The position numbers and the translations under genes were made by a program. DNA of 28,434 nucleotides, taken from contig JBFXGX010000013.1 in assembly GCA_050177605.1 (NCBI GenBank), forward strand, positions 16,248 to 44,681, given 5' to 3'. The notes beneath the pieces were generated by a model. That model had not been told where the DNA came from and searched no databases. It worked only from the letters and a program-made list of their open reading frames with translations. Positions 7,891 through 25,536 of the stretch are shown here, in pieces. The stretch comes from Candidatus Izemoplasmatales bacterium. Lineage in GTDB: Bacteria > Bacillota_I > Bacilli_A > Izemoplasmatales > Hujiaoplasmataceae. Positions within the stretch are counted from its first letter, which is position 1; every line of letters begins with the position of its first letter.

Positions 7891-9207
7891 TTATTTACCA
7901 GCAACTGGCATACTTTTTACTTTCACTGAAGGACAAGTAATACCATAGTAACTCATTTTTACATCATTTCCTACAAGGACAACATCTTTTAACATTGCGA
8001 TGAAATTGCCTGCGACAGTAATTAAAGCAACTGGCTTAACAATTTTTCCGTTTTCTACTAAGAATCCAGAAGCTTGAAGACTAAAATCTCCACTCACTGG
8101 GTTGGCCCCAGCATGTGCTCCTTGAACATCAGTGATATATACACCGTTTTCAAGTGAAGCAAGGAGAAGCTCTTTTGTAGAAGTTCCAGGTAGTAACATT
8201 AAGTTTACAGCTGCAACTGTCGTTCCAAATCCATTTCCAGTTGGTTCAACGCCATCTTTTTTTGCTGTAACTAAATTATGTAAGTAGGTTTTTAATACAC
8301 CCTTAGAAATTAGTTCTTTATATTTTGTCGCAACACCTTCATCATCAAATGAACGAGAACGACTACTTTTCTTTAAGAATGGATCATCAACAATGGTCAC
8401 AAGAGAAGAACCTACTTCTTCTCCTAATTTTCCTTTTAACAAAGAGAAGCCTTTATGAACTGCATCTGCTGAGAATACATTTCCAAACGCACTTAAAAGG
8501 GTAGCTAAAGCACTGCGATCAAATACAATTTCATAGTTTCCTGAAGGAATAGGACCAGCACCAAGTTGACTCACTGCGTCTTTCACAACTTCACTAGCTA
8601 ATGTATCTACGTGAAAATCATCAAAATTGTTTGAGATTTCAAGATCAAAAGCAGTTCTTTGATCTTTATCATCTTTAACGATAACACTACCACCAATATA
8701 AGCGGAGTTTACTTTGTTAAATAATTTTAGACCTAATGTATTTTGAATCATCACGGAACGTGTTGTTTCAGAATACATTGTTTCAGCGACAGTTACCAGT
8801 GGATTCGCTTCATGGAATTGTTTATCGAGTTCCTTCACAGTAGCGATTTTTTTCGCCACTTCAAGTTTAGATAAATCTTCATTAAACAAACCCTCAACTG
8901 CTTTGTACTCTTTGTCTCCGCCATAGATGATTGCGTCATCTAAAGAGTCAATAATGGAAGCATTTTTGATTAAATGATCAACGATACCATCAATGAGTTC
9001 ATCTTCCATAATTTCTGTAACATAAGAACCCATTTTGCCTTTGTATACACCACGAATTGTCATACTAGAAGTATCGGCAATTTCATATTTATCTAATTCT
9101 CCCGCAAAAACCTCAATGGATAATTGCGTTGAATTATTAACGAATACTTGGACATCACTAAGGCCTTTTGCAAGTGCTTTTTCAAATAACTTATCAACAT
9201 TCATCAT
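7891..9207 (-). CDS. pmbA: TldD/PmbA family protein, PmbA (TldE)-like non-catalytic subunit
   Basis: FDDEGV, GAHAGANPVSGDFS and ITVAGN motifs; no HExxxH. Start moved to MMNVDKLF (9207), just after the tldD stop; the ORF-track N-terminus overlaps tldD. Confidence 0.85.
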   Translation of the reverse strand: MMNVDKLFEKALAKGLSDVQVFVNNSTQLSIEVFAGELDKYEIADTSSMTIRGVYKGKMGSYVTEIMEDELIDGIVDHLIKNASIIDSLDDAIIYGGDKEYKAVEGLFNEDLSKLEVAKKIATVKELDKQFHEANPLVTVAETMYSETTRSVMIQNTLGLKLFNKVNSAYIGGSVIVKDDKDQRTAFDLEISNNFDDFHVDTLASEVVKDAVSQLGAGPIPSGNYEIVFDRSALATLLSAFGNVFSADAVHKGFSLLKGKLGEEVGSSLVTIVDDPFLKKSSRSRSFDDEGVATKYKELISKGVLKTYLHNLVTAKKDGVEPTGNGFGTTVAAVNLMLLPGTSTKELLLASLENGVYITDVQGAHAGANPVSGDFSLQASGFLVENGKIVKPVALITVAGNFIAMLKDVVLVGNDVKMSYYGITCPSVKVKSMPVAGK

Positions 9208-9209
9208 GA

Positions 9210-10607
9210 TTATTTCGCTCCTTTCTTTCCACCAACGGTGATGGATGAAACGCGAAGTGTTGGTTGTCCAACGTCCGCTGGAATTGATCCAGAAGCTGAG
9301 CCACACATTCCGCGAGCACTATCAAGATTATTTCCAACCATATCGATTTTCATTAAGATATCAGCGCCATTACCAACTAAAGAAGCTCCTCTTACTGGTT
9401 CAGCGATTTTTCCATCACGAACGATGTACCCTTCAGATACTGAGAAGTTGAAATCACCATTTCCAGGATTAACCGATCCGCCTCCAAGTTTGGCTGCAAA
9501 TAAACCGTATTCAGTAGCTGCAATGATTTCTTCAAAAGTCGATGTGCCGTTATCAATATAAGTATTACTCATACGAGATGTAGGCGCGTATTTATATGAT
9601 TCTCTTCTAGAAGAACCTGTCGGTCTATGATTCATTCTTCTAGCATTGAGTTTATCAACCATATAGGTTTTTAAGACACCTTTATCGATTAATACACGAC
9701 GTTCTTGAGGTGTTCCTTCATCATCGAAGTTAGCACTTCCCCAAGCATTTTCTATCGTTCCATCGTCAATCGCTGTCACGATTGGTGTTGCGACTACTGT
9801 ATTTAGTTTTCCACAAAATACGGATGCATTTTTCGCAACGCTAGTTGCTTCTAAACTATGTCCGCAAGCTTCATGGAAAATAACGCCACCAAATTTGTTA
9901 TTAATGATGACCGGCATATTGCCACTTGGGCAATCATCCGCAAACAACATTGTTTTTGCAGTTCTAGCCGCATCTTTAGCGATTTCTTCGATATCGATAT
10001 CTTCTTCAAAGTATTCGTATCCTTTTCCAGAACCTGGGCCTTCTCCGCCTGTTTGCATCACGCCGTCTTTTCCAGCAATCGCTTGGATATATAATCTTGC
10101 ACGAACTCTGGTTTCACTGACAAAACGTCCTTCACTGTTCGCGATAAGTACTTCTTGAGAAGAATCTCCTAAGTTAATCGCAACTTGTTGAATGACTTCG
10201 TCATATTCTTTGGCTGCTTTATATGCTTTTTGCATTAAAGCAACTTTTTCTTCTTGAGATACATCTTTTGGATTTTTCTTTACTTGATGTCTTGTGCCGA
10301 CTTCAAGTTCTCCTAAAGGAACTCTTTTTGTTAATTCATGATTGTTGAATGACGCACTTAAATCAGCTGCTAATTTTAATAGGTCCTTTGGATTTTGACT
10401 ATTTGTATAACCATATACACTTTGTAATTTGAGTGCAATACGAACGCCAACACCGAAGACTTTAACGCTAGCTACTTTTTCAACACGTCCCCCAATTAAT
10501 TGAATTGAATCTGATACTTTTTCTTCTGTATAGACTTCTGCGAAATCGGCCCCAGTTGAAAGTGCTGTATCTAGAATTTGTTCAATTAATGTTTTTTCTA
10601 GTAACAT
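9210..10607 (-). CDS. tldD: TldD metalloprotease
   Basis: GADFAEVY, HEACGHSLEA metal motif, FDDEGTP, RMSNTY and GMCGS.SGSIP.DVGQPTLRV motifs. Confidence 0.93.
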   Translation of the reverse strand: MLLEKTLIEQILDTALSTGADFAEVYTEEKVSDSIQLIGGRVEKVASVKVFGVGVRIALKLQSVYGYTNSQNPKDLLKLAADLSASFNNHELTKRVPLGELEVGTRHQVKKNPKDVSQEEKVALMQKAYKAAKEYDEVIQQVAINLGDSSQEVLIANSEGRFVSETRVRARLYIQAIAGKDGVMQTGGEGPGSGKGYEYFEEDIDIEEIAKDAARTAKTMLFADDCPSGNMPVIINNKFGGVIFHEACGHSLEATSVAKNASVFCGKLNTVVATPIVTAIDDGTIENAWGSANFDDEGTPQERRVLIDKGVLKTYMVDKLNARRMNHRPTGSSRRESYKYAPTSRMSNTYIDNGTSTFEEIIAATEYGLFAAKLGGGSVNPGNGDFNFSVSEGYIVRDGKIAEPVRGASLVGNGADILMKIDMVGNNLDSARGMCGSASGSIPADVGQPTLRVSSITVGGKKGAK

Positions 10608-13687: not shown

Positions 13688-14869
13688 TTAACAAAATACT
13701 TTCGTGGTTCTATCAAGAATGTTCGTAAGGTAACTAATTAATACGCCATAGTTAACCATTGGTATATTCAAATCATTCGCTACTTCAATTCTAGATTTCA
13801 TTGTTTTTCGATTTAACATACAACTTCCGCAGTGAATAATTAAGTCATATCCTTGAATCACAGAAGGAAAATCTGCGCCAAGACAAAAATCAATTTGTGG
13901 TTTAAATCCAAGTTTTTGTTCAAGAAGACGAGGGATTTTGATTTGTCCAATATCTTCATGTGATATGTTATGAGAACAACTTTCTACAACCAGAATTTTA
14001 GAGGATGGTGTTAGTTTATCTACAAAGCGCGCACCTTGAAGCAATGTGTTGAAGTCCCCTTTGTACCTTGCGAAAAGCATTGAAAAAGATGTTAACGGAA
14101 TATTATCGGGAACAATTTGATTTACATAATGAAATGCCTGAGAGTCTGTGATTACAATCGCTACATTTTTTGTGATTTGAAGCGCATGTTCTAGTTCTGT
14201 TTCGCGAATCACTAACGCTTGAATTCCATAATCAAGTAAATCTCGAATCACTTGAACTTGAGGAAGAATCATTCTTCCTTTTGGTGCCTCAGAATCAATT
14301 GGACAAACAAGAATTGCGACATCTCCATATTTTAATTGATCCCCAATGATGGATGGCTCTTTAACTTCACCTAATTGTTTAATCAATGTGGATCTTAATT
14401 TCTCGATATCCCTATTCTTAGCACTGACGAAGATGGCTTTTGGATATTTATGAATCAAACTTTCTAACTCTTCTTCACTCACTTGATCACTTTTATTAAA
14501 TACGAGAATGGATGGAATACTTCTTCTTTTTAGCTTCAACTCTAAATTTTCTATGAAAAGATCATCGATATTGTTACTATCTACAACAAGAAGTGCTAAA
14601 TCCGTTTGCATCATCACATGTTCCGATTTCTTGACTCTCATCGAACCTAGTTCTCCAACATCATCCAGTCCTGCTGTATCGATAAAAATCACTGGCCCGA
14701 AAGGAATCAATTCCATTCTTTTTTTGACAGGATCTGTCGTTGTTCCCATCGTATCATGAACCAAAGAAACTTCTTGATTCGCCAGTGCATTCAGCAAGCT
14801 ACTCTTCCCAACGTTTCTTTTCCCAAAAATAGTAATATGTGGTATTAACGCTGTTGGTTGTTTATTCAT
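13688..14869 (-). CDS. hydF: [FeFe]-hydrogenase maturation GTPase HydF
   Basis: GKRNVGKSS P-loop, GTTTDPV, DTAG, NKSD, APKGRMILPQVQ, CSH and HCGSC Fe-S motif. Confidence 0.95.
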   Translation of the reverse strand: MNKQPTALIPHITIFGKRNVGKSSLLNALANQEVSLVHDTMGTTTDPVKKRMELIPFGPVIFIDTAGLDDVGELGSMRVKKSEHVMMQTDLALLVVDSNNIDDLFIENLELKLKRRSIPSILVFNKSDQVSEEELESLIHKYPKAIFVSAKNRDIEKLRSTLIKQLGEVKEPSIIGDQLKYGDVAILVCPIDSEAPKGRMILPQVQVIRDLLDYGIQALVIRETELEHALQITKNVAIVITDSQAFHYVNQIVPDNIPLTSFSMLFARYKGDFNTLLQGARFVDKLTPSSKILVVESCSHNISHEDIGQIKIPRLLEQKLGFKPQIDFCLGADFPSVIQGYDLIIHCGSCMLNRKTMKSRIEVANDLNIPMVNYGVLISYLTNILDRTTKVFC

Positions 14870-16232
14870 ATAAATCTTTTTGTCCTTCCTTGATTTTTAA
14901 AAGATTATCTTCAAGTCTTTTTTTAGTCTTTTCAAACGGAATTTGGTTCACTTCGTTTTGAATAAAATCCCAACCTATATCTTTGAGTTCTTCATCTCCG
15001 TAATTTTGTATATATTCTGCTAAAGATAAAATGGCATTTGGTTGACAAAAGAGATTAATATTTCCAGCTTTGACTGTTTCCATAAACACTTCTCCTGTTC
15101 TTCCTTTTCTGTAACATCCAGTGCAAAACGAAGGAAGATGACCGTAAGATATTAACCATTTAATGACCTCGATAGGAGTTCTTTCGTCTTTTAAAGTAAA
15201 CTGAGACACCTTTTTTGCTTTTTCATTTTCTTGGTAACCACCTACTTCAGTATGAGAACCAGCACTCAGTTGAGTTACTCCTGAATCTATCAGTAACTCT
15301 CTCATCTCTTTGGTTTCTCTTGTGGAAATGATTATTCCGGTATAGGGGACAGCAAGGCGGATTGTAGCAACAATTTTTTTAAATGAAAAGTCATCCACAA
15401 GATATTTGAACTTTTCAGCCGAAACTCCTTCTGCTTTTTGAAGTCTAGGAACACTTATTGTATGAAACCCAACGTGGAATTGTTTCTCAAGTGCTTCATT
15501 ATGCAAAAACAGCGATATGACTTCATAGCGATAATCTGAAAGTCCAAATAAGACCCCTCCACCAACATCATCGATTCCTGCTTCCATAGCACGGTGCATT
15601 GCAAATAATTGTCTTTCATAGTCACTTTTTGGCCCAGAGATATGCATTTTGCGGTAGACATGTTCGTTATATGTTTCTTGGAATAAAATATAGGTACCAA
15701 TTCCCTTTTCTTTCAGTCTTCGATAATTCTCGACGGATGTCGCAGCAATGTTCACGTTGATTCTTCTGATATCTCCAGAACGATAAATTGTATCGATTGC
15801 ATCTAGAACTTCATCGAAAGAACAATTTTCATCATCCTCCCCAGCTTCTAGTGCAATTCGCTTGTGTCCTGCTTTTTCGAGTGCTTTTACTTCGTTAACA
15901 ATTTCTTCTGTGGATAGTTTTCTTCTCGCTATTTTATTTGTTTTTTTGTATCCGCAATATGCGCAGTTATTCACACAATAATTACTGATATATAGCGGTG
16001 CGAAAAGAACAACTCGGTTGCCATAGATCTTCGACTTTATTTCGTTTCCTGCCTGTAAAAGTTCTGATAATAAATCCTCATCAACAATCGATAATAATTT
16101 GGCTACTTCAACATGGCTTAAACCAACGAGTGTTTTTCCCTTTTCTATAATTTCTCTTATTTCTTCTTTTGTAGAAAGAGCTGCCGTTTCTACTAATTGA
16201 TTGATATATTCTTGATTAATAAAGTTATCCAT
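14862..16232 (-). CDS. hydG: [FeFe]-hydrogenase radical SAM maturase HydG
   Basis: FAPLYISNYCVNNCAYC, FQETY, and the C-terminal auxiliary-cluster motif CTGC-X22-C that distinguishes it from ThiH. Confidence 0.95.
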   Translation of the reverse strand: MDNFINQEYINQLVETAALSTKEEIREIIEKGKTLVGLSHVEVAKLLSIVDEDLLSELLQAGNEIKSKIYGNRVVLFAPLYISNYCVNNCAYCGYKKTNKIARRKLSTEEIVNEVKALEKAGHKRIALEAGEDDENCSFDEVLDAIDTIYRSGDIRRINVNIAATSVENYRRLKEKGIGTYILFQETYNEHVYRKMHISGPKSDYERQLFAMHRAMEAGIDDVGGGVLFGLSDYRYEVISLFLHNEALEKQFHVGFHTISVPRLQKAEGVSAEKFKYLVDDFSFKKIVATIRLAVPYTGIIISTRETKEMRELLIDSGVTQLSAGSHTEVGGYQENEKAKKVSQFTLKDERTPIEVIKWLISYGHLPSFCTGCYRKGRTGEVFMETVKAGNINLFCQPNAILSLAEYIQNYGDEELKDIGWDFIQNEVNQIPFEKTKKRLEDNLLKIKEGQKDLYE

Positions 16233-16235
16233 TTG

Positions 16236-17342
16236 CTAATTCCTCCTCATATTGGGATGGTCTCCCCTGCTTAAATCGATTTCGTATCCACTAAGGACGA
16301 TTCTACCTTCAATGCATCCGCGACACTTAATAGACTCATCTGCGATACATATTCGATTCTCATATAATTCATACTTACTCTTAAACTTGGCTTCTGATAT
16401 GCTTGGCATTACAACATTCGCTCCTGATTTTAATGCTTTTTCTCTTCCACCAGGAAATACTGTCCCAAGCGCGGTTGTCGAAGGAAGGAGTGCTTCGGGT
16501 AAAATCAATCTTGTTAACGCAACGCAAACTAAAACTTGGTCAAGCGTTCCACTTGGGAAATCCTTAAAAGGTGTTTTTGAATGCGCAATAAAAGGTCCTA
16601 TTCCAACCATATGAGGTTGTAATTTCTCTAAAAACAGAAAGTCTTCAACTAAGTCCTCATTACTTTGAGTTGGCGAATTCACCATAAATCCTGCTCCGAC
16701 TTGATATCCTATTTCCTTCATATTCCAAAGGCACTCTATCCGGTTCTCAAAACTCATTATTTCAGGATGTAAGTACTCATATAATCTTTTTGATGCGCTC
16801 TCATGTCTTAGTAAATACCTGTCACATCCTGCATCAAAATAGGATTGATAACTCTCTTTGGATTTTTCTCCGATTCCTAAAGTAATTGCAGCGTCAGGAA
16901 ACTCCTTTTTGATGTGACGAATCATTGAACAGATTCTTTCATCTGTAAAATAAGCATCTTCACCAGATTGTAATACGAAAGTTCGATAACCCATATCATA
17001 TCCTTCTTTAGCGTAAGAAAGGATTTCCTCTTCAGTCATTCGAAATCGTTTAGCTTCATGATTGGACATTCTAATTCCACAGTATTTACAGTCCCTTGAA
17101 CAAATATTCGAAAACTCGATCAAACCTCGAAGGTATACACTCGATTGATAGTGTTCCTTTCTAGTCTTATCTGCCATTTTCGTTAAGATATTCAATTCGT
17201 ACTTTGTAATATTATCTAAAATATAGAGATATTCTTCTCTTTTTAAATTTTTCTCTCGGGATAGTTTTTCAAGATAAGAAATAATTGTGTTTTCACAGAT
17301 AGATTGGTTATTTCTCGTCAATTCAAGATTAGGTAGTATCAA
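16236..17342 (-). CDS. hydE: [FeFe]-hydrogenase radical SAM maturase HydE
   Basis: LRGLIEFSNICSRDCKYCGIR, VLQSGED, RYLLRHE, MVGIGPF and GANVVMP motifs; adjacent to hydG/hydF. The TTG start is uncertain. Confidence 0.92.
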   Translation of the reverse strand: MILPNLELTRNNQSICENTIISYLEKLSREKNLKREEYLYILDNITKYELNILTKMADKTRKEHYQSSVYLRGLIEFSNICSRDCKYCGIRMSNHEAKRFRMTEEEILSYAKEGYDMGYRTFVLQSGEDAYFTDERICSMIRHIKKEFPDAAITLGIGEKSKESYQSYFDAGCDRYLLRHESASKRLYEYLHPEIMSFENRIECLWNMKEIGYQVGAGFMVNSPTQSNEDLVEDFLFLEKLQPHMVGIGPFIAHSKTPFKDFPSGTLDQVLVCVALTRLILPEALLPSTTALGTVFPGGREKALKSGANVVMPSISEAKFKSKYELYENRICIADESIKCRGCIEGRIVLSGYEIDLSRGDHPNMRRN

Positions 17343-18092: not shown

Positions 18093-18129
18093 AGAAATAT
18101 AAAAGGAAATCGATCGATTTCCTTTTTTT
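18093..18129. repeat. 32-bp direct repeat copy 2, also a bidirectional terminator between crp and the ABC permease
   Basis: AGAAATATAAAAGGAAATC-GATC-GATTTCCTT-TTTTT. Confidence 0.7.
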
Positions 18130-19398
18130 CTACCATGATTTATCTCTTAATAAATAATCTCTGATTGTTTGTTTTTTCATTCGATAGATTGTGCCTAAAT
18201 AAATTAGACTAATGAAAGTAATCATAAGTGCGAATCCAATAACAATCATCCATAGAAACATTGAAATACTAGTAATTAAGTTGATTTGATAGGTAGCTTC
18301 AATGAGATAAGTTATTCCAAAACGGCCCAAAAATTCAATCGGTAACGCTAGTAAAAAAGCGAAAAATCCAAGTTCAAAAAGTTCAATAAGAAGTAATTCT
18401 GATATCTTCTTGTTCGACAGCCCTAAGGTAAGTAATACGCCAGAACTTTTCGAAAACTGACTAAGAAATTTATTCACTGACAGATATAAAATCATGACGA
18501 GTGCAATGCCGATTTGTATTTCCATAATCAAGATAAGACTGTTTAGTATAACTAACATGGAAGCAATATCGCCCATTTGAGTAATCACTGATTCAGCAAA
18601 ATAGATAAAAGAGTATCGGTTAGATAATCCAGAGAATTGTTCAAGCGATAAATACTCGGTAAGAATATACTGATTTACGGGTTCAAACTCTTCGCTATGT
18701 GTAATATAAAAACGATTGGTCATTCCCATATATATTGTAGGATTAAACATATAGTAGTCTATTTTATGCCCAGACAAAGCATAATACTCCGATTTAATGA
18801 TTCCAGAAACAATAAAGGAATCAAGGATTATGGCTTGATGATTGGTTCTACTGGCAATTGTTAATGATTTTCCGATAATATCCGGTGAAAGTCCGAACGA
18901 CTCAAGCATAGGTTCTGAAACTAATATCTCATTGTCGTTCGTTGGAAAACTTCCGATGATTAAATCTTGGCTGGAAAGTTCCATTACGTCATTATTGTTC
19001 AATAAATCATTTGACTGTCCAGCAACAATAGAAAAACTAGTTGACTGATTGGACTCGTAATATATTCCATCGACAGAAATGCTTAGCAAATCTGAAGATA
19101 AATAGTCTAATGATATACCATAAAGTCTCTCTGTTATGGATGCTGGATCAAAATACATAAACGTTTTCTCTTGATACACTACTTTCTCATCTTTAAAATC
19201 AATCTCATCATTTGATAGAATGTAGTTGGATGAATAATAGTCATTCAGTAAACTTATTTGTTTCTCTCTTAAAGATATACTGAATGAAATGGTCAATGTA
19301 ACCAGAACCATAATAATAGTGAAAATAAAAGAAAAAGCAAAACAAACCTTTTTATTGGAGGAAAGATTTCTAATGGATAAAATCAAAACTGATTTCAT
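18130..19398 (-). CDS. FtsX/MacB-family ABC transporter permease 2
   Basis: N-terminal TM, large extracellular domain (GSFPT.DNEILVS), three C-terminal TMs with LLTLGLS.K.I. Confidence 0.8.
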   Translation of the reverse strand: MKSVLILSIRNLSSNKKVCFAFSFIFTIIMVLVTLTISFSISLREKQISLLNDYYSSNYILSNDEIDFKDEKVVYQEKTFMYFDPASITERLYGISLDYLSSDLLSISVDGIYYESNQSTSFSIVAGQSNDLLNNNDVMELSSQDLIIGSFPTNDNEILVSEPMLESFGLSPDIIGKSLTIASRTNHQAIILDSFIVSGIIKSEYYALSGHKIDYYMFNPTIYMGMTNRFYITHSEEFEPVNQYILTEYLSLEQFSGLSNRYSFIYFAESVITQMGDIASMLVILNSLILIMEIQIGIALVMILYLSVNKFLSQFSKSSGVLLTLGLSNKKISELLLIELFELGFFAFLLALPIEFLGRFGITYLIEATYQINLITSISMFLWMIVIGFALMITFISLIYLGTIYRMKKQTIRDYLLRDKSW

Positions 19399-19409
19399 AA
19401 TGCTCCCCC

Positions 19410-20525
19410 TTACCTTTTTACCTTTTTCACACTAATGAAAAATGATAAACTTGAGATAAACAATAATACAATTGTGATGAGTAAAAAATTGTTCAATTGT
19501 ATAGAAGAACTAAAACTCATATTAAACAAATCACTCGCTAGTGAAATAATCTTGTCTTGAATCATCATTGACATGAAAAAAGCAATGGAACTAGCGATCA
19601 ATGTCATTCCAACAAAGATGAAGAAATATCCAAGCATTATTGTTTTCTCTTGAAAGCCAAGAATGTTTAGAAGCTTGGTATATTGTTCTCTTTGGATCAT
19701 AATAATGGAAGAAACAGCGTAGAAACAAAGAGCAATCGAAACTCCAATAACAATTGTGGTCACTAACAAAAACGAATCAGTAATGCTAACATTCCGAAAA
19801 TACACTTGGATATCGCTTGGAACATCAACAACATAACCCAATTTAGATAAGTTTAAGGACAATTGATATCCTTGATAGACAGAATCGGTTACGATTGTTA
19901 TTGTATCGATGTCATCAAGTGGTCCTAATGTAATATAAAAATATGCTGCAAATTCCGAACTATCAAACAATTGTGAAGTTCTATCATATATTCCTACCAC
20001 CAAAAAGTCTTGATGATTGATTGTTATTGTATCACCTATATTTGCCCCCAATTGTAATGCAATATATTGACTTAACGCAATTTCATAATAATTCATTGGC
20101 CAATCACCAGAAAACAAAGAGTTGTTGTATTCATTCAGCAACTGACACTCAGGGTCAGGAATAATTTTTCCGTTGTAAAATGAGATAATCGTGTAATCTC
20201 CAAGATGCTGAGTTGAAACAGTTGAAAAAATTTTATCGTTAAAAATAAGTTCCGCTTCTTCGGTATAGTAACGTCCACTACCAACAAGACTCATATCTAT
20301 AGAAAGATATGGTGAGATTGTCTCAAAATCAATATCATCAACACCTAGTGTAATTCCGTCTTCTCTTTCCTCTATTTGTGAGATGAAATTATAAAATAAA
20401 TCTTGTTTAATTGATAAAAAGCTAAATAGCGTAGAACAAAACAATGTGATAGTGATACCAAAAAGAAAAATTGTACGGTACAAAACTCTCCATTCTTTAT
20501 CGATTAACCACAGTATTTTCTTCAT
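19410..20525 (-). CDS. FtsX/MacB-family ABC transporter permease 1
   Basis: N-terminal TM, GDWP...EIALS...A..LGANIGDTI...F.VVGI, then C-terminal TMs with LNILGF. Confidence 0.82.
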   Translation of the reverse strand: MKKILWLIDKEWRVLYRTIFLFGITITLFCSTLFSFLSIKQDLFYNFISQIEEREDGITLGVDDIDFETISPYLSIDMSLVGSGRYYTEEAELIFNDKIFSTVSTQHLGDYTIISFYNGKIIPDPECQLLNEYNNSLFSGDWPMNYYEIALSQYIALQLGANIGDTITINHQDFLVVGIYDRTSQLFDSSEFAAYFYITLGPLDDIDTITIVTDSVYQGYQLSLNLSKLGYVVDVPSDIQVYFRNVSITDSFLLVTTIVIGVSIALCFYAVSSIIMIQREQYTKLLNILGFQEKTIMLGYFFIFVGMTLIASSIAFFMSMMIQDKIISLASDLFNMSFSSSIQLNNFLLITIVLLFISSLSFFISVKKVKR

Positions 20526-21186
20526 CTTTCACTACCTTCCCATCAGATAACGTAATGACTCTATCTGCGATTTTAGTCGTTTCTTCATCATGGGTAACTA
20601 ATACAATGGTTTTACCTAAGGTATGCAAATAGGTCAATAAATCAAGAACGATTTTTGCGTTGGTTTTATCGAGATTGCCTGTCGGCTCATCAGCAAGAAT
20701 AATCGATGGATTATTGATGATTGCTCTCGCAATAGTAACCCTTTGTTGCTCTCCTCCAGATAACTTTTTTGCTTTTACATCCTTTTTGTTTAATAAATCA
20801 ACGATTTTTAATACATCAAGAATTTCTTCGAGGTTCTCTTTGCCAAACAATCCACTGATAATCAGTGGAACTTCAATGTTTTCATAAACAGTATATTCGC
20901 CCTCAAGGTTGAATTGTTGAAATACAAATCCAAGCTCTTTATTTCTAAACTGGGCTACTTCTTTACTAGAAAATGAATCCACATTCCGATCATGAATGAT
21001 AATCTCCCCTTTAGTTGGTCGATCTAAGGTCCCAATCAAATTGAGTAATGTTGATTTCCCACTACCTGATTTTCCAGTAATTGCAACAAATTGTGCGTCT
21101 TTAATTCGGATAGATAAATCGTCAATTGCTCGAAATAGTCCGTCTCCAATAATATATTCCTTTGTAACATTTCTTAATTCGATCAT
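20497..21186 (-). CDS. ABC transporter ATP-binding protein (LolD/MacB type)
   Basis: GKSGSGKST, GFVFQQFNL, LSGGEQQRV, ILADEPTGNLD and VTHD motifs. Confidence 0.95.
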   Translation of the reverse strand: MIELRNVTKEYIIGDGLFRAIDDLSIRIKDAQFVAITGKSGSGKSTLLNLIGTLDRPTKGEIIIHDRNVDSFSSKEVAQFRNKELGFVFQQFNLEGEYTVYENIEVPLIISGLFGKENLEEILDVLKIVDLLNKKDVKAKKLSGGEQQRVTIARAIINNPSIILADEPTGNLDKTNAKIVLDLLTYLHTLGKTIVLVTHDEETTKIADRVITLSDGKVVKDEENTVVNR

Positions 21187-21194
21187 AAAATGTA

Positions 21195-21578
21195 TTATCC
21201 TTCCAAAAGAAATTTTTGATGATTAACAATAATATAATCCTCTTTAAATTCAAACTGAACTGAGATTCCCATCATTAATTCAATTGATATTTTTTTATCT
21301 GTTATAGTATAAGAATTTTCGTTGCATAGTTTATTTGTCAAGTTGAAATCAACTCCAAAGTCTTTTTGTAAATCGTCATTAAAATCATCAAAATTCACGT
21401 TGAAAAATTGGATATAATCTTCATTTATAATCAACGTCTCAGAATCATTTGATTCATTAACATACGTTCCATATTCTATTTCATTTGATTTTGTGCATGA
21501 AATTAGAGTTCCTAAAGCTAAATAAAAAATGCTGATTATAAATATTTTACCATATATGTTCATTATTTTCTTTGACAT
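21195..21578 (-). CDS. Small hypothetical lipoprotein
   Basis: Hydrophobic signal ending LIS-C; EYGTYV followed by a beta-rich body. RBS GAGAGG. Confidence 0.7.
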   Translation of the reverse strand: MSKKIMNIYGKIFIISIFYLALGTLISCTKSNEIEYGTYVNESNDSETLIINEDYIQFFNVNFDDFNDDLQKDFGVDFNLTNKLCNENSYTITDKKISIELMMGISVQFEFKEDYIIVNHQKFLLEG

Positions 21579-21611: not shown

Positions 21612-21644
21612 TAATAAAATGAGGATGCATTTCTACATCCTCAT
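21612..21644 (-). terminator. Internal hairpin or terminator between the two lipoprotein genes
   Basis: Minus strand ATGAGGATGT-agaaat-GCATCCTCAT followed by TTTATTA. Confidence 0.6.
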
Positions 21645-22051: not shown

Positions 22052-22183
22052 TTATTGTGTATCAATATCTATTTCTTCGTAGTCTATATCATCAAAATCT
22101 GCATAGACATTTGATACTGAAGACCCTAAAAAAAACAAAGATAAAAATATAAATATAAAGATATATATCAGGTATTTTTTCAT
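22052..22183 (-). CDS. Uncalled 43-aa secreted pro-peptide MKKYLIYIFIFIFLSLFFLGSSVSNVYADFDDIDYEEIDIDTQ (candidate signalling peptide)
   Basis: Hand-translated. AAGGAGG RBS 4 nt before ATG 22183, TAA at 22054-22052, Sec-type signal peptide with a V-Y-A cleavage site. It fills the gap ahead of the lipoprotein gene. Confidence 0.8.
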   Translation of the reverse strand: MKKYLIYIFIFIFLSLFFLGSSVSNVYADFDDIDYEEIDIDTQ

Positions 22184-22198
22184 TTTTCCTCCTTATAA

Positions 22199-22246
22199 TG
22201 CTATAATATAATAGAATCCACATTAAAAAAAGGACCTGAAGGTTCC
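22199..22246. promoter_or_regulatory. Overlapping divergent promoters with candidate regulator box GGACC-N5-GTTCC (22232-22246)
   Basis: Plus strand TGCTATAAT (22199-22207, extended -10) for the regulator. Minus strand TATTAT (22213-22208) has no good -35; the imperfect inverted repeat and a T7 tract occupy that region. Confidence 0.55.
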
Positions 22247-22266
22247 GTTTTTCCGAGGAAGATAAA

Positions 22267-23214
22267 ATGATTAATATTGTACAAAATCATATGTATCATA
22301 TCGATAAAATTAGACAAAAAAAGAATATAAAAGTTGTCGATTTGTGTGATGGAATTTGTTCGGATAGACAATACAGAAAATATCTTTCAGGAACAAACAA
22401 CATCAGCGATAGTAGAATAATTGAATTTTGTAATAAAATGGGCGTTAGTTCGCGAGACTTTTACTATACTTTAAATGTATCAGAATTAAATAATTTTGCT
22501 TACATCAAAGAGATATATTGGAGCCTAGTGAATAAAAACTATATAAAGACTAAGTCTCTGATAGATCAATATAAAATTAACCCAGAACATATATCTATTC
22601 AAAGTCAAAGGTTGTATAATTACTGTCTTATACGGTACGAATATTCAATACATAGTATTTCTGATGACAATACAGTAAATCGCATTACCAAGTTAATTGA
22701 TTTCAATTCAAAAGAATCAATCATGGCTTTTGACTATGTTGACATTCTACTTCTCTTATTCGTTGCCGAAATTGAAGTAAAATCCCACAGGACTGAAACT
22801 CTTTATAAATTGACTGACCTTCTAAAAACAAATCAAGTCCTATATTTAAGTCCTGATAGTAGAGAATTAATTTCTCCAATATACTCTAATGTCTGTATCA
22901 TGTTTGGCAGATTATCTAAGTACGAAGATATATTAGAAATCAATAAAGCAGGAATCGATTTTTGCCTTAAATATTCTTTTAGCAAGTCATTGACAAGATT
23001 ATACTATACAAGATCTATTGCACTAAAAAAGTTGAATAGAAGCGAGGAGTCTGAAGAATTTGCTGCGAAATGTTTGTTTAATTCGCTTTCGTTAAATAAT
23101 ATTGATGATTATCATCAATTTTCACAATGTATTATGAAAGACTTCAACAAATCTAGTGTGATTATAATCAATCAGTATATTTCTAAAATGAATGATATTC
23201 TATCTAAACAATAA
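22267..23214 (+). CDS. RRNPP-family (PlcR/NprR/Rgg-like) HTH-TPR transcriptional regulator
   Basis: XRE-type HTH (IRQKKNI..VDLCDGICSDRQY.KY..G) and a C-terminal TPR-like region (IYSN...KYEDILEINKAGIDFC...SLTRLYYTRSIALKKL) recalling PlcR; 315 aa. Confidence 0.75.
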   Translation: MINIVQNHMYHIDKIRQKKNIKVVDLCDGICSDRQYRKYLSGTNNISDSRIIEFCNKMGVSSRDFYYTLNVSELNNFAYIKEIYWSLVNKNYIKTKSLIDQYKINPEHISIQSQRLYNYCLIRYEYSIHSISDDNTVNRITKLIDFNSKESIMAFDYVDILLLLFVAEIEVKSHRTETLYKLTDLLKTNQVLYLSPDSRELISPIYSNVCIMFGRLSKYEDILEINKAGIDFCLKYSFSKSLTRLYYTRSIALKKLNRSEESEEFAAKCLFNSLSLNNIDDYHQFSQCIMKDFNKSSVIIINQYISKMNDILSKQ

Positions 23215-24979: not shown

Positions 24980-24993
24980 TTATAATTTAAAGA

Positions 24994-25536
24994 TTATTCA
25001 TCATACATTTTTTCGTAATCGTCCATGTATTCGTTGTACTTGTCATCATCAAAGTCGTCTTCTTCATCGATAACTGCATCTTCTGAATCTTCAATGAAAT
25101 CCTCTTCGTCATCATCGAAATCATCAAAATCAAGGTCATCTTCGTAGATGTCGTCTTCTTCCTCTTCTTCGTCTTCTTCCTCTTCTTCGTCTTCATCTTC
25201 TTCATCAAGATCGAAGTCGTCTTCTTCCTCTTCCTCTTCTTCTTCGAATTCTTCTTCAAAGTCAGGGAATTCTTGATAGAATGCGCCGTCTTTATCCCAT
25301 AGATCGATGGATTGTCTGCTTTTTAAATCCCATAAATCATCGCCAACGTAGACAAACTTTGCACTCATTATAAAATCTGCATATACTTGTGAGATAATTT
25401 CATTTTTTTCTTCTTCGCTGATTCCTTTTAGTTCACATACCGCTTGGAATAATTCCAAGAAAGACATAGGTTGGTTGTTTTTAACTAAAGTTTCTTCTGC
25501 AGCTTCCATTAAAGACATTTGATTCCAATCTGCCAT
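24994..25536 (-). CDS. rpoE: RNA polymerase delta subunit
   Basis: MSLMEAA...PMSF.EL...Y.D....KFVYVGDDLWDLK plus a long D/E tail; rpoE-pyrG order as in Bacilli. Confidence 0.92.
   Translation of the reverse strand: MADWNQMSLMEAAEETLVKNNQPMSFLELFQAVCELKGISEEEKNEIISQVYADFIMSAKFVYVGDDLWDLKSRQSIDLWDKDGAFYQEFPDFEEEFEEEEEEEEDDFDLDEEDEDEEEEEDEEEEEDDIYEDDLDFDDFDDDEEDFIEDSEDAVIDEEDDFDDDKYNEYMDDYEKMYDE

Follow-up and report, generated by a model that had tools for sequence, protein, structure and literature searches.

A putative PlcR-like receptor and a divergently encoded, putatively secreted pro-peptide in a Candidatus Izemoplasmatales genome

The DNA analyzed here (the window) is a stretch of 28,434 nucleotides from a Candidatus Izemoplasmatales bacterium (assembly GCA_050177605.1, contig JBFXGX010000013.1, positions 16,248 to 44,681 of the forward strand). 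The locus of interest consists of two genes that point away from each other, one encoding a regulator of 315 residues and the other a pro-peptide of 43 residues (Table 1). The pro-peptide gene is a minus-strand open reading frame (ORF) of 132 nt, that is, 43 codons and a stop, with the product MKKYLIYIFIFIFLSLFFLGSSVSNVYADFDDIDYEEIDIDTQ, and at this size it falls under the default 60-residue threshold of the ORF listing. Judged by rule from its n-, h-, and c-regions, the precursor starts with a Sec signal peptide, in which the basic n-region reads MKK, the hydrophobic core spans 17 residues, and V-Y-A closes the c-region; the 15-residue tail behind it contains 8 acidic and no basic residues. 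By the same rule the pro-peptide resembles PapR and Phr peptides in being of the Sec type, unlike SHP. A first-pass annotation had singled out this ORF, with its AAGGAGG ribosome-binding site, VYA-ending signal peptide, and acidic tail, as a possible signaling peptide placed head to head with its receptor, and every detail proved correct on re-reading, including the 83 bp that separate the start codon of the peptide gene from that of the regulator. The peptide genes of relatives have a ribosome-binding site in the equivalent position. Sub-threshold Pfam matches of the pro-peptide to DUF1948, PsbI, and Nodulin_late were judged to be chance.

The regulator was assigned to a family by profile and by fold. 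A search of PDB sequences with the single sequence returned weak Rgg2-type matches only (E 1.5e-3, residues 13–104), with a later match to Rgg2 at E 6.7e-6, and an NCBIfam search gave no match. Its 23 close relatives, one of which is named as a Haloplasma contractile helix-turn-helix (HTH) regulator, form alignment A1. A profile search of 1.84 billion representatives retrieved 690 proteins at E ≤ 1e-3; 278 of them pass at E ≤ 1e-10 and 104 at E ≤ 1e-30. The family profile built from 123 full-length members (alignment A2) matched PlcR (2qfc, 3u3w, and 4fsc) with an E value of 1.3e-12 across positions 5–267. Its match to Rgg2 (E 1e-10) is restricted to the first ~110–115 positions; PrgX (E 1e-4) and ComR (E 6e-3) follow, and tetratricopeptide repeat (TPR) proteins align over positions 153–274. 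Within the family, the Pfam model RNPP_C is matched by 11 of the 123 members (best E 9e-11) and HTH_3 by 55, and the Rgg-specific NCBIfam models match none of them, nor the regulator itself.

Structure prediction leads to the same neighborhood. An AlphaFold2 model of the regulator, computed on alignment A1, is all-helical, with 17 helices, a mean pLDDT of 86.9, and a pTM of 0.71. When it was compared with the PDB by Foldseek, the PlcR–PapR7–DNA complex ranked first (3u3w_A; E 2.6e-7, TM 0.65/0.72), followed by Rgg2, ComR, Rgg3, NrpR, and PrgX among 54 matches at E ≤ 1e-3; the first 26 entries shown are HTH–TPR regulators, 25 of them named peptide-pheromone receptors and one an uncharacterised Listeria regulator. 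In VIA-align, 272 of 280 residues superposed on PlcR 3u3w_A (Z 19.1, rmsd 3.8), with Z scores of 18.9 for 2qfc and 16.8 for apo-PlcR. Matches to Rgg, ComR, and PrgX span Z 14.7–16.5 (Rgg3 and ComR at 16.5, as for the Listeria regulator; Rgg2 at about 16; PrgX at about 15), and Rap and NprR reach about 14 over the TPR part only. The HTH of the model superposes on those of PlcR and Rgg. Based on the Foldseek and VIA-align scores, the receptor is, as modeled, a member of the five-TPR clan with PlcR as its nearest relative, in agreement with the PlcR-like architecture of XRE-type HTH and TPR-like domain that had been proposed for it. Rgg as a family label, which the first PDB sequence matches had pointed to, was dropped because the deeper profile and the fold both ranked PlcR first.

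The pairing of regulator and pro-peptide is preserved widely. A divergent ORF for a secreted pro-peptide lies beside the regulator homologue in 32 of 33 fetched loci, of which 14 came from species-representative genomes and 19 from metagenomes. For one of the 32 (L012), the contig ends within the peptide ORF, so that the N-terminus alone is visible, and the sole miss (L020) concerns a regulator that is 24% identical and apparently split. Several of these loci are duplicated across the collections, such as L010 and L027, both on contigs of 6013 nt, so that the 32 cases are not independent; about 21 distinct pro-peptide sequences are found among them, with related tails such as DGFDDVDLEEVVIESQ, DFDEITYEDVEID, and DIHEVDFETPRIPYVIQ. 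Across the same order, regulator matches at E ≤ 1e-20 occur in 73 of 151 genomes, with at most five matches per genome, and they cover 39 of the 62 high-quality genomes and 22 of the 33 genera. In an order-wide sample of 20 regulators, spread over E values from 7.5e-145 to 1.3e-27, an intact divergent pro-peptide ORF was found in 17, 16 by the automatic rule plus that of L065.

The background of such findings was estimated in the window's own genome. The detector requires a divergent ORF of 25–110 residues that has a ribosome-binding site, a hydrophobic core, and a basic N-terminus. Of the genome's 978 long ORFs, 15 have such an ORF upstream; with stricter limits (38–60 residues, within 130 nt) the number falls to four, and three of these four are the regulator and two of its paralogs. 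Of the two paralogs, the one on contig C6 has a divergent ORF of 46 residues and the one on C10 a divergent ORF of 53, both with a ribosome-binding site and a signal-peptide-like start, whereas a more distant paralog on C43 has a divergent secreted ORF of 96 residues instead. The neighborhood of regulator and peptide is more than chance, and the first-pass expectation that small secreted ORFs would accompany regulator homologues is borne out.

Several pro-peptides in the wider family depart from the simple acidic tail. The precursor of L065 (G008:C1, upstream of the regulator at 1744253) is ~117 residues long and carries, after its signal peptide, five tandem motifs of the DFEDSGEPEY type, a motif present in single copy in L064 and L066. 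Tails with two cysteines 10–15 residues apart occur in the distant members L049, L053, L056, L058, L060, and L061, a spacing that suggests disulfide-closed peptides, which to our knowledge are undescribed for RRNPP signals. The C43 locus (G000:C43:203-3862, L025) contains three regulator paralogs, and the mature part of its 96-residue protein starts with a two-cysteine motif. In a quick tree of 20 rows, peptide tail types follow the regulator clades; this agreement was not counted as co-evolution, since common ancestry would produce it as well.

The region between the two genes contains a candidate operator. When 18 upstream regions were aligned (the window, 14 relatives, and three paralogs), a palindrome of the form GGNNC-N5-GNNCC was found in 17, preceded by AAAAC in most; the region without it belongs to the distant C43 paralog. 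The half-sites vary jointly between clades (GGAAC/GGTCC, GGCCC/GGGCC, and GGGCC/GGCCC). For 15 of the 17 boxes, the position that best matches a -10-like decamer (consensus ATTATAACAT) lies exactly 19 nt behind the box; in the window, the decamer agrees at 8 of 10 positions at offset 19 and at 9 of 10 at offset 24. In the putative peptide promoters the palindrome occupies the place of the -35 element, and if the decamer contains the -10 hexamer, the center of the palindrome would fall at about -41 relative to the presumed peptide start. A center near -41 is where activators that replace the -35 element bind.

A regulator of opposite sign would read these features differently: the apo-protein would repress from the palindrome and imported peptide would relieve the repression, as in PrgX and repressor-type Rgg. 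The palindrome lies just 20 nt upstream of the regulator ATG, and PrgX and Rgg are among the structural matches (Z 15–16.5), both of which would suit such a mechanism. We consider it quite unlikely, given that a palindrome in place of the -35 element at a fixed 19-nt spacing is, by general promoter knowledge, typical of activators, and that the closest structure, PlcR, is deposited as a transcriptional activator.

The machinery for peptide export and uptake is encoded in the same genome. A signal peptidase I gene lies on G000:C30 (TIGR02227, 110.2 bits, above cut-off). The Opp importer that the first-pass annotation had suggested looking for is present as one operon (G000:C21:18-8864) that encodes an OppA-like lipoprotein of 911 residues (SBP_bac_5), OppB, OppC (OppC_N), OppD, and OppF (oligo_HPY). 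To model the complex, the TPR part of the regulator (residues 68–315, alignment A1) was folded with the 15-residue tail. Three runs gave ipSAE values of 0.86, 0.86, and 0.87, compared with 0.02 for the best of three controls; of 157 solved complexes 116 attain the ipSAE mark applied, as do 2 of 215 mismatched pairs. The runs showed 100% contact agreement, with a partner pLDDT of at least 86, and all but one of the 15 tail residues contact the TPR groove. The modeling supports, without demonstrating, binding of the tail in this groove. Conserved residues of the modeled groove are Y84, D156, N208, G214, R215, K240, R244, Y247, K291, and D292, and the conserved basic residues of the groove (K81, R215, K240, R244, and K291) would suit an acidic peptide; positions 88, 164, 168, 200, 204, 284, and 288 are variable.

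Taken together, the divergent genes, the conservation of the pair, the receptor fold, the palindrome with its constant spacing to a -10-like element, and the genes for Opp and signal peptidase I point to a peptide quorum-sensing pair of the RRNPP type with a PlcR-like receptor, an assignment that we regard as probable. In a simple model, the 43-residue pro-peptide would leave the cell through Sec, and signal peptidase I would cleave it behind VYA, releasing an acidic peptide of at most 15 residues that may be trimmed further, its mature length being a guess. At high cell density the Opp permease would re-import the peptide, which would bind the concave TPR groove of the 315-residue regulator. 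A regulator dimer on the 15-bp palindrome, centered near -41 of the peptide promoter, would activate the peptide gene in a positive feedback loop together with the gene for a 122-residue lipoprotein, and perhaps the ABC/FtsX genes behind it; that the effect is activation is likewise a guess. The regulator gene could also be modulated by the same binding, because the palindrome lies in its own leader.

A number of points weigh against this assignment. All support is in silico, from sequence and models. The regulator itself has a single Pfam match, to HTH_3 (residues 14–64, E 1.4e-4), whose 22.2 bits are 0.8 bits below the cut-off of 23, and it has no match to RNPP_C at E ≤ 1. The complex job lies off calibration, with a 15-residue partner shorter than any calibrated and a custom alignment, and its pass may reflect likeness or memory, because complexes of PlcR, Rgg, and ComR with peptides have already been solved. 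With regard to the candidate operator, the palindrome, which lies in the regulator leader, was picked up by a simple scan of the plus strand as a terminator-like hairpin, albeit a weak one. A conserved GTTTT follows the palindrome on the regulator strand (22232-22251), and because of it the element resembles a weak intrinsic terminator or attenuator; in place of an operator, it may be an RNA element of that leader, either a hairpin or a weak terminator. The conserved mismatch in the commonest form, GGAAC/GGTCC, would be slightly more in keeping with a protein site than with an RNA stem. A loose search of the genome for the box yielded no further sites, with 23 matches as against 26 in a reversed-genome null; only the peptide promoters on C13 and C10 looked real, and the C6 box, which differs by one base, escaped the pattern. 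Finally, three of the 20 sampled relatives are without an intact peptide ORF, one (L050) retaining a remnant broken by stops and two (L055 and L057) with none seen.

The same three relatives would also be accommodated if the TPR–XRE regulator answered another ligand, or none, and the secreted peptide were a conserved cargo rather than a signal. The peptide always heads a small cargo operon, and its return into the cell is conjectural. This alternative is nevertheless unlikely, since among solved structures those of peptide-pheromone receptors come nearest, the complex model places the tail in the groove with a score far above its controls, and conserved basic residues of the groove match the acidic peptide; moreover, five tandem copies in one precursor, as in L065, are more readily understood as a released signal than as a structural product. 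A peptide signal read by a PlcR-like receptor continues to be the favored interpretation.

If the peptide is such a signal, its nearest candidate target lies directly behind it. The 122-residue predicted lipoprotein gene is probably co-transcribed with the peptide gene and would be the first target of the system. The protein has no Pfam or NCBIfam family above cut-off and no paralog in the genome. Its similarity to Shiga-toxin B-subunit models (13–15 bits, with cut-offs of 175–203, at the signal-peptide end only) was rejected as chance. Beyond a terminator-like hairpin follow four genes, for a second lipoprotein, an ABC ATPase, an FtsX/MacB-type permease, and a protein of FtsX-like topology, which would come under the same control only with read-through.

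In most relatives and in two paralogous loci of the same genome, the gene after the peptide encodes a conserved cytoplasmic protein of 91–109 residues (alignment A3), which is not the case in the window. This protein has no Pfam family and a weak PDB match to the N-terminal part of SpbK (E 8e-4). It is followed by variable small genes, such as one for an HNH-like protein of 93 residues on C6 (E 1.6e-3) and one for a protein of 96 residues in L007–L011.

The transporter genes raise the question of a bacteriocin-like peptide, with the ABC/FtsX genes as its exporter or immunity system and the regulator as an ordinary local one. The ABC ATPase matches TIGR03608, 'putative bacteriocin export', at 210.8 bits, below the cut-off of 254.85, and in L035 the ORF after the peptide gene begins like the C39 peptidase domain of a bacteriocin-type ABC exporter, the contig ending inside it. 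In contrast, LolD and FtsE models outscore TIGR03608 on the ATPase, the peptide's mature part is a short, unstructured, wholly acidic stretch, the peptide–lipoprotein unit and the ABC genes have a terminator-like hairpin between them, and the next gene in most relatives encodes the cytoplasmic protein, not a transporter. We therefore hold a bacteriocin to be very unlikely and retain the quorum-sensing pair as the probable explanation of the locus.

Table 1. Positions of the regulator–peptide pair, its candidate control elements, and neighboring or related genes
Feature	Coordinates	Strand	Remarks
Pro-peptide gene, 43 aa	22052..22183	-	ORF; divergent homologues beside relatives
Signal peptide, residues 1-28	22100-22183	-	Rule-based; predicted cleavage after VYA
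Acidic tail, residues 29-43	22055-22099	-	Stop codon 22052-22054
AAGGAGG ribosome-binding site of peptide gene	22188..22194	-	4 nt before ATG
-10-like element of putative peptide promoter	22203..22212	-	ATTATATTAT in peptide sense; second overlapping copy 5 nt downstream
15-bp imperfect palindrome GGACC-N5-GGTTC (plus strand)	22232..22246	.	Candidate operator; 20 nt upstream of regulator ATG
GAGGA ribosome-binding site of regulator	22255-22259	+	
Receptor/regulator, 315 aa	22267..23214	+	XRE-type HTH ~residues 4-69; five-TPR-like helical domain ~70-315
Predicted lipoprotein, 122 aa	21652..22020	-	Lipobox-like ...FATAC; 31 nt downstream of peptide gene
Terminator-like hairpin, 11-bp stem	21619..21644	-	After 122-aa gene
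Possible further downstream unit	18130..21578	-	Regulated only with read-through of hairpin
Lipoprotein, 127 aa	21195-21578	-	
ABC ATPase	20497-21186	-	
FtsX/MacB-type permease	19410-20525	-	
Protein of FtsX-like topology, 422 aa	18130-19398	-	
Terminator-like hairpin	18101-18126		
Own-genome pair loci	G000:C6:17345-19160 (L023); G000:C10:43535-45110 (L024)		Same box and layout
Protein of 91-109 aa (alignment A3)	L023:3581-3868; L024:2536-2853; L007:2423-2752; others		

The remainder of the window contains several further groups of genes. On the minus strand, positions 13688-17342 carry a HydF GTPase gene and two radical-SAM genes in a row, which resemble an [FeFe]-hydrogenase maturation set; beside it lie a PadR regulator gene with one for a DUF4097 protein, then a TldD/PmbA pair (7891-10607), and a gene for an M32 carboxypeptidase. 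A minus-strand gene at 24994-25536 encodes a protein of 180 residues that starts with a HARE-HTH and has a very long Asp/Glu-rich tail; a Lys-rich ORF of 90 residues (24987-25259), which overlaps it in a different frame, probably arises from that composition.

The genome is 1.94 Mb in size with 34% G+C, and its genes were read under table 11. The CTP synthase encoded in the window is 80–81% identical to proteins of Izemoplasmatales and of 'Tenericutes bacterium HGW-Tenericutes-1', and the related genomes are those of Candidatus Izemoplasmatales, Acholeplasmataceae, Mycoplasmatota, and one 'Bacillota' metagenome-assembled genome, which makes the host Izemoplasmatales-like and agrees with its earlier tentative placement in a Mollicutes-related lineage. 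RRNPP peptide quorum sensing is treated as a trait of walled Firmicutes. Full-text literature searches found no report of RRNPP systems for Acholeplasma, Tenericutes, Mollicutes, Mycoplasmatota, Haloplasma, or Izemoplasma, of PlcR for Mollicutes, or of quorum sensing for Izemoplasma, Acholeplasma, Haloplasma, or Hujiaoplasma, consistent with the first-pass remark that no characterised example is known from such a lineage. In the RRNPP_detector paper (PMC10075063), where a dataset column reads 'Firmicutes', the names Tenericutes, Mollicutes, Acholeplasma, Haloplasma, and Mycoplasma are absent from the main text and from part of the supplements. The main text of the FoldTree paper (PMC12700828) likewise does not mention Tenericutes, Mollicutes, Acholeplasma, or Haloplasma; it assigns PlcR and TprA to a common branch, the less diverged one of the five-TPR clan, and describes Sec export as the ancestral route.

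If the system works as modeled, free-living wall-less relatives of the Mollicutes would communicate by secreted peptides, and the PlcR-like, Sec-dependent branch would reach into the Mycoplasmatota, with a bearing on the origin of the Rgg/ComR branch. More generally, a lineage-wide radiation of PlcR-type pheromones in the wall-less Izemoplasmatales and Acholeplasmataceae, with novel peptide forms each wired to a tiny private operon, can be envisaged, a possibility that we regard as doubtful. The family is large, with 690 representative clusters and a match in close to half of the order's sampled genomes. We know of no RRNPP precedent for wholly acidic 13–17-mers that lie along the whole groove, as modeled here, for two-cysteine tails, or for a precursor with five copies. 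SpbK is an anti-phage protein. Were the radiation real, the operons, which in many loci hold a gene weakly like the N-terminal part of SpbK and an HNH-like gene, would suggest density-dependent defense or competition cassettes in relatives of the Mollicutes. The pair is small and self-contained, with a clear candidate operator, which makes it directly testable with synthetic peptide.

Among known systems, the closest likeness is to PlcR–PapR of the Bacillus cereus group. Common to both are a receptor of ~290–315 residues with an HTH and five TPRs, PlcR being the best match of the regulator in both whole-length structure and profile, and a Sec-type pro-peptide of ~40–50 residues with the signal part at its C-terminal side; a palindromic operator upstream of target promoters is present here as a candidate, and re-import through Opp would be possible with the operon found. 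The papR gene lies downstream of plcR on the same strand, and the PlcR box is A/T-rich, unlike the G+C-rich GGNNC-N5-GNNCC found here. The window pair differs further in its sequence identity of 17–18% to PlcR, in a wholly acidic tail, in the absence of an evident large regulon in the loose box search, and in its host, a relative of the Mycoplasmatota rather than Bacillus. With a divergent peptide gene, a different box, and this degree of identity, the receptor is best described as PlcR-like and not as a PlcR orthologue.

In Rgg–SHP systems of streptococci, receptor and peptide genes are divergent, and the peptide gene is the first of the target operon. The first-pass annotation had likened the divergent layout to Rgg/SHP, an apt comparison for an arrangement that is kept beside relatives. 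Rgg–SHP also shares the fold (about Z 16) and supplied the first weak sequence matches, to Rgg2, but its profile match is limited to the N-terminal ~110–115 residues, no Rgg NCBIfam model is matched, and the signal of the window peptide is of the classical Sec type. The window pair would fit with TprA–PhrA of Streptococcus pneumoniae and other systems of the PlcR clade, insofar as the main text of PMC12700828 places PlcR and TprA in a branch with ancestral Sec export. ComR–XIP and PrgX–cCF10 have in common with it the HTH and five-TPR fold (Z 14.7–16.5) and, as far as the complex model goes, a peptide in the groove, with a weaker sequence signal (PrgX E 1e-4, ComR E 6e-3). Their peptide biogenesis also differs from that of the window pair. 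Because the pair agrees in full neither with PlcR proper nor with Rgg–SHP, it would represent a new PlcR-like subfamily of a known kind.

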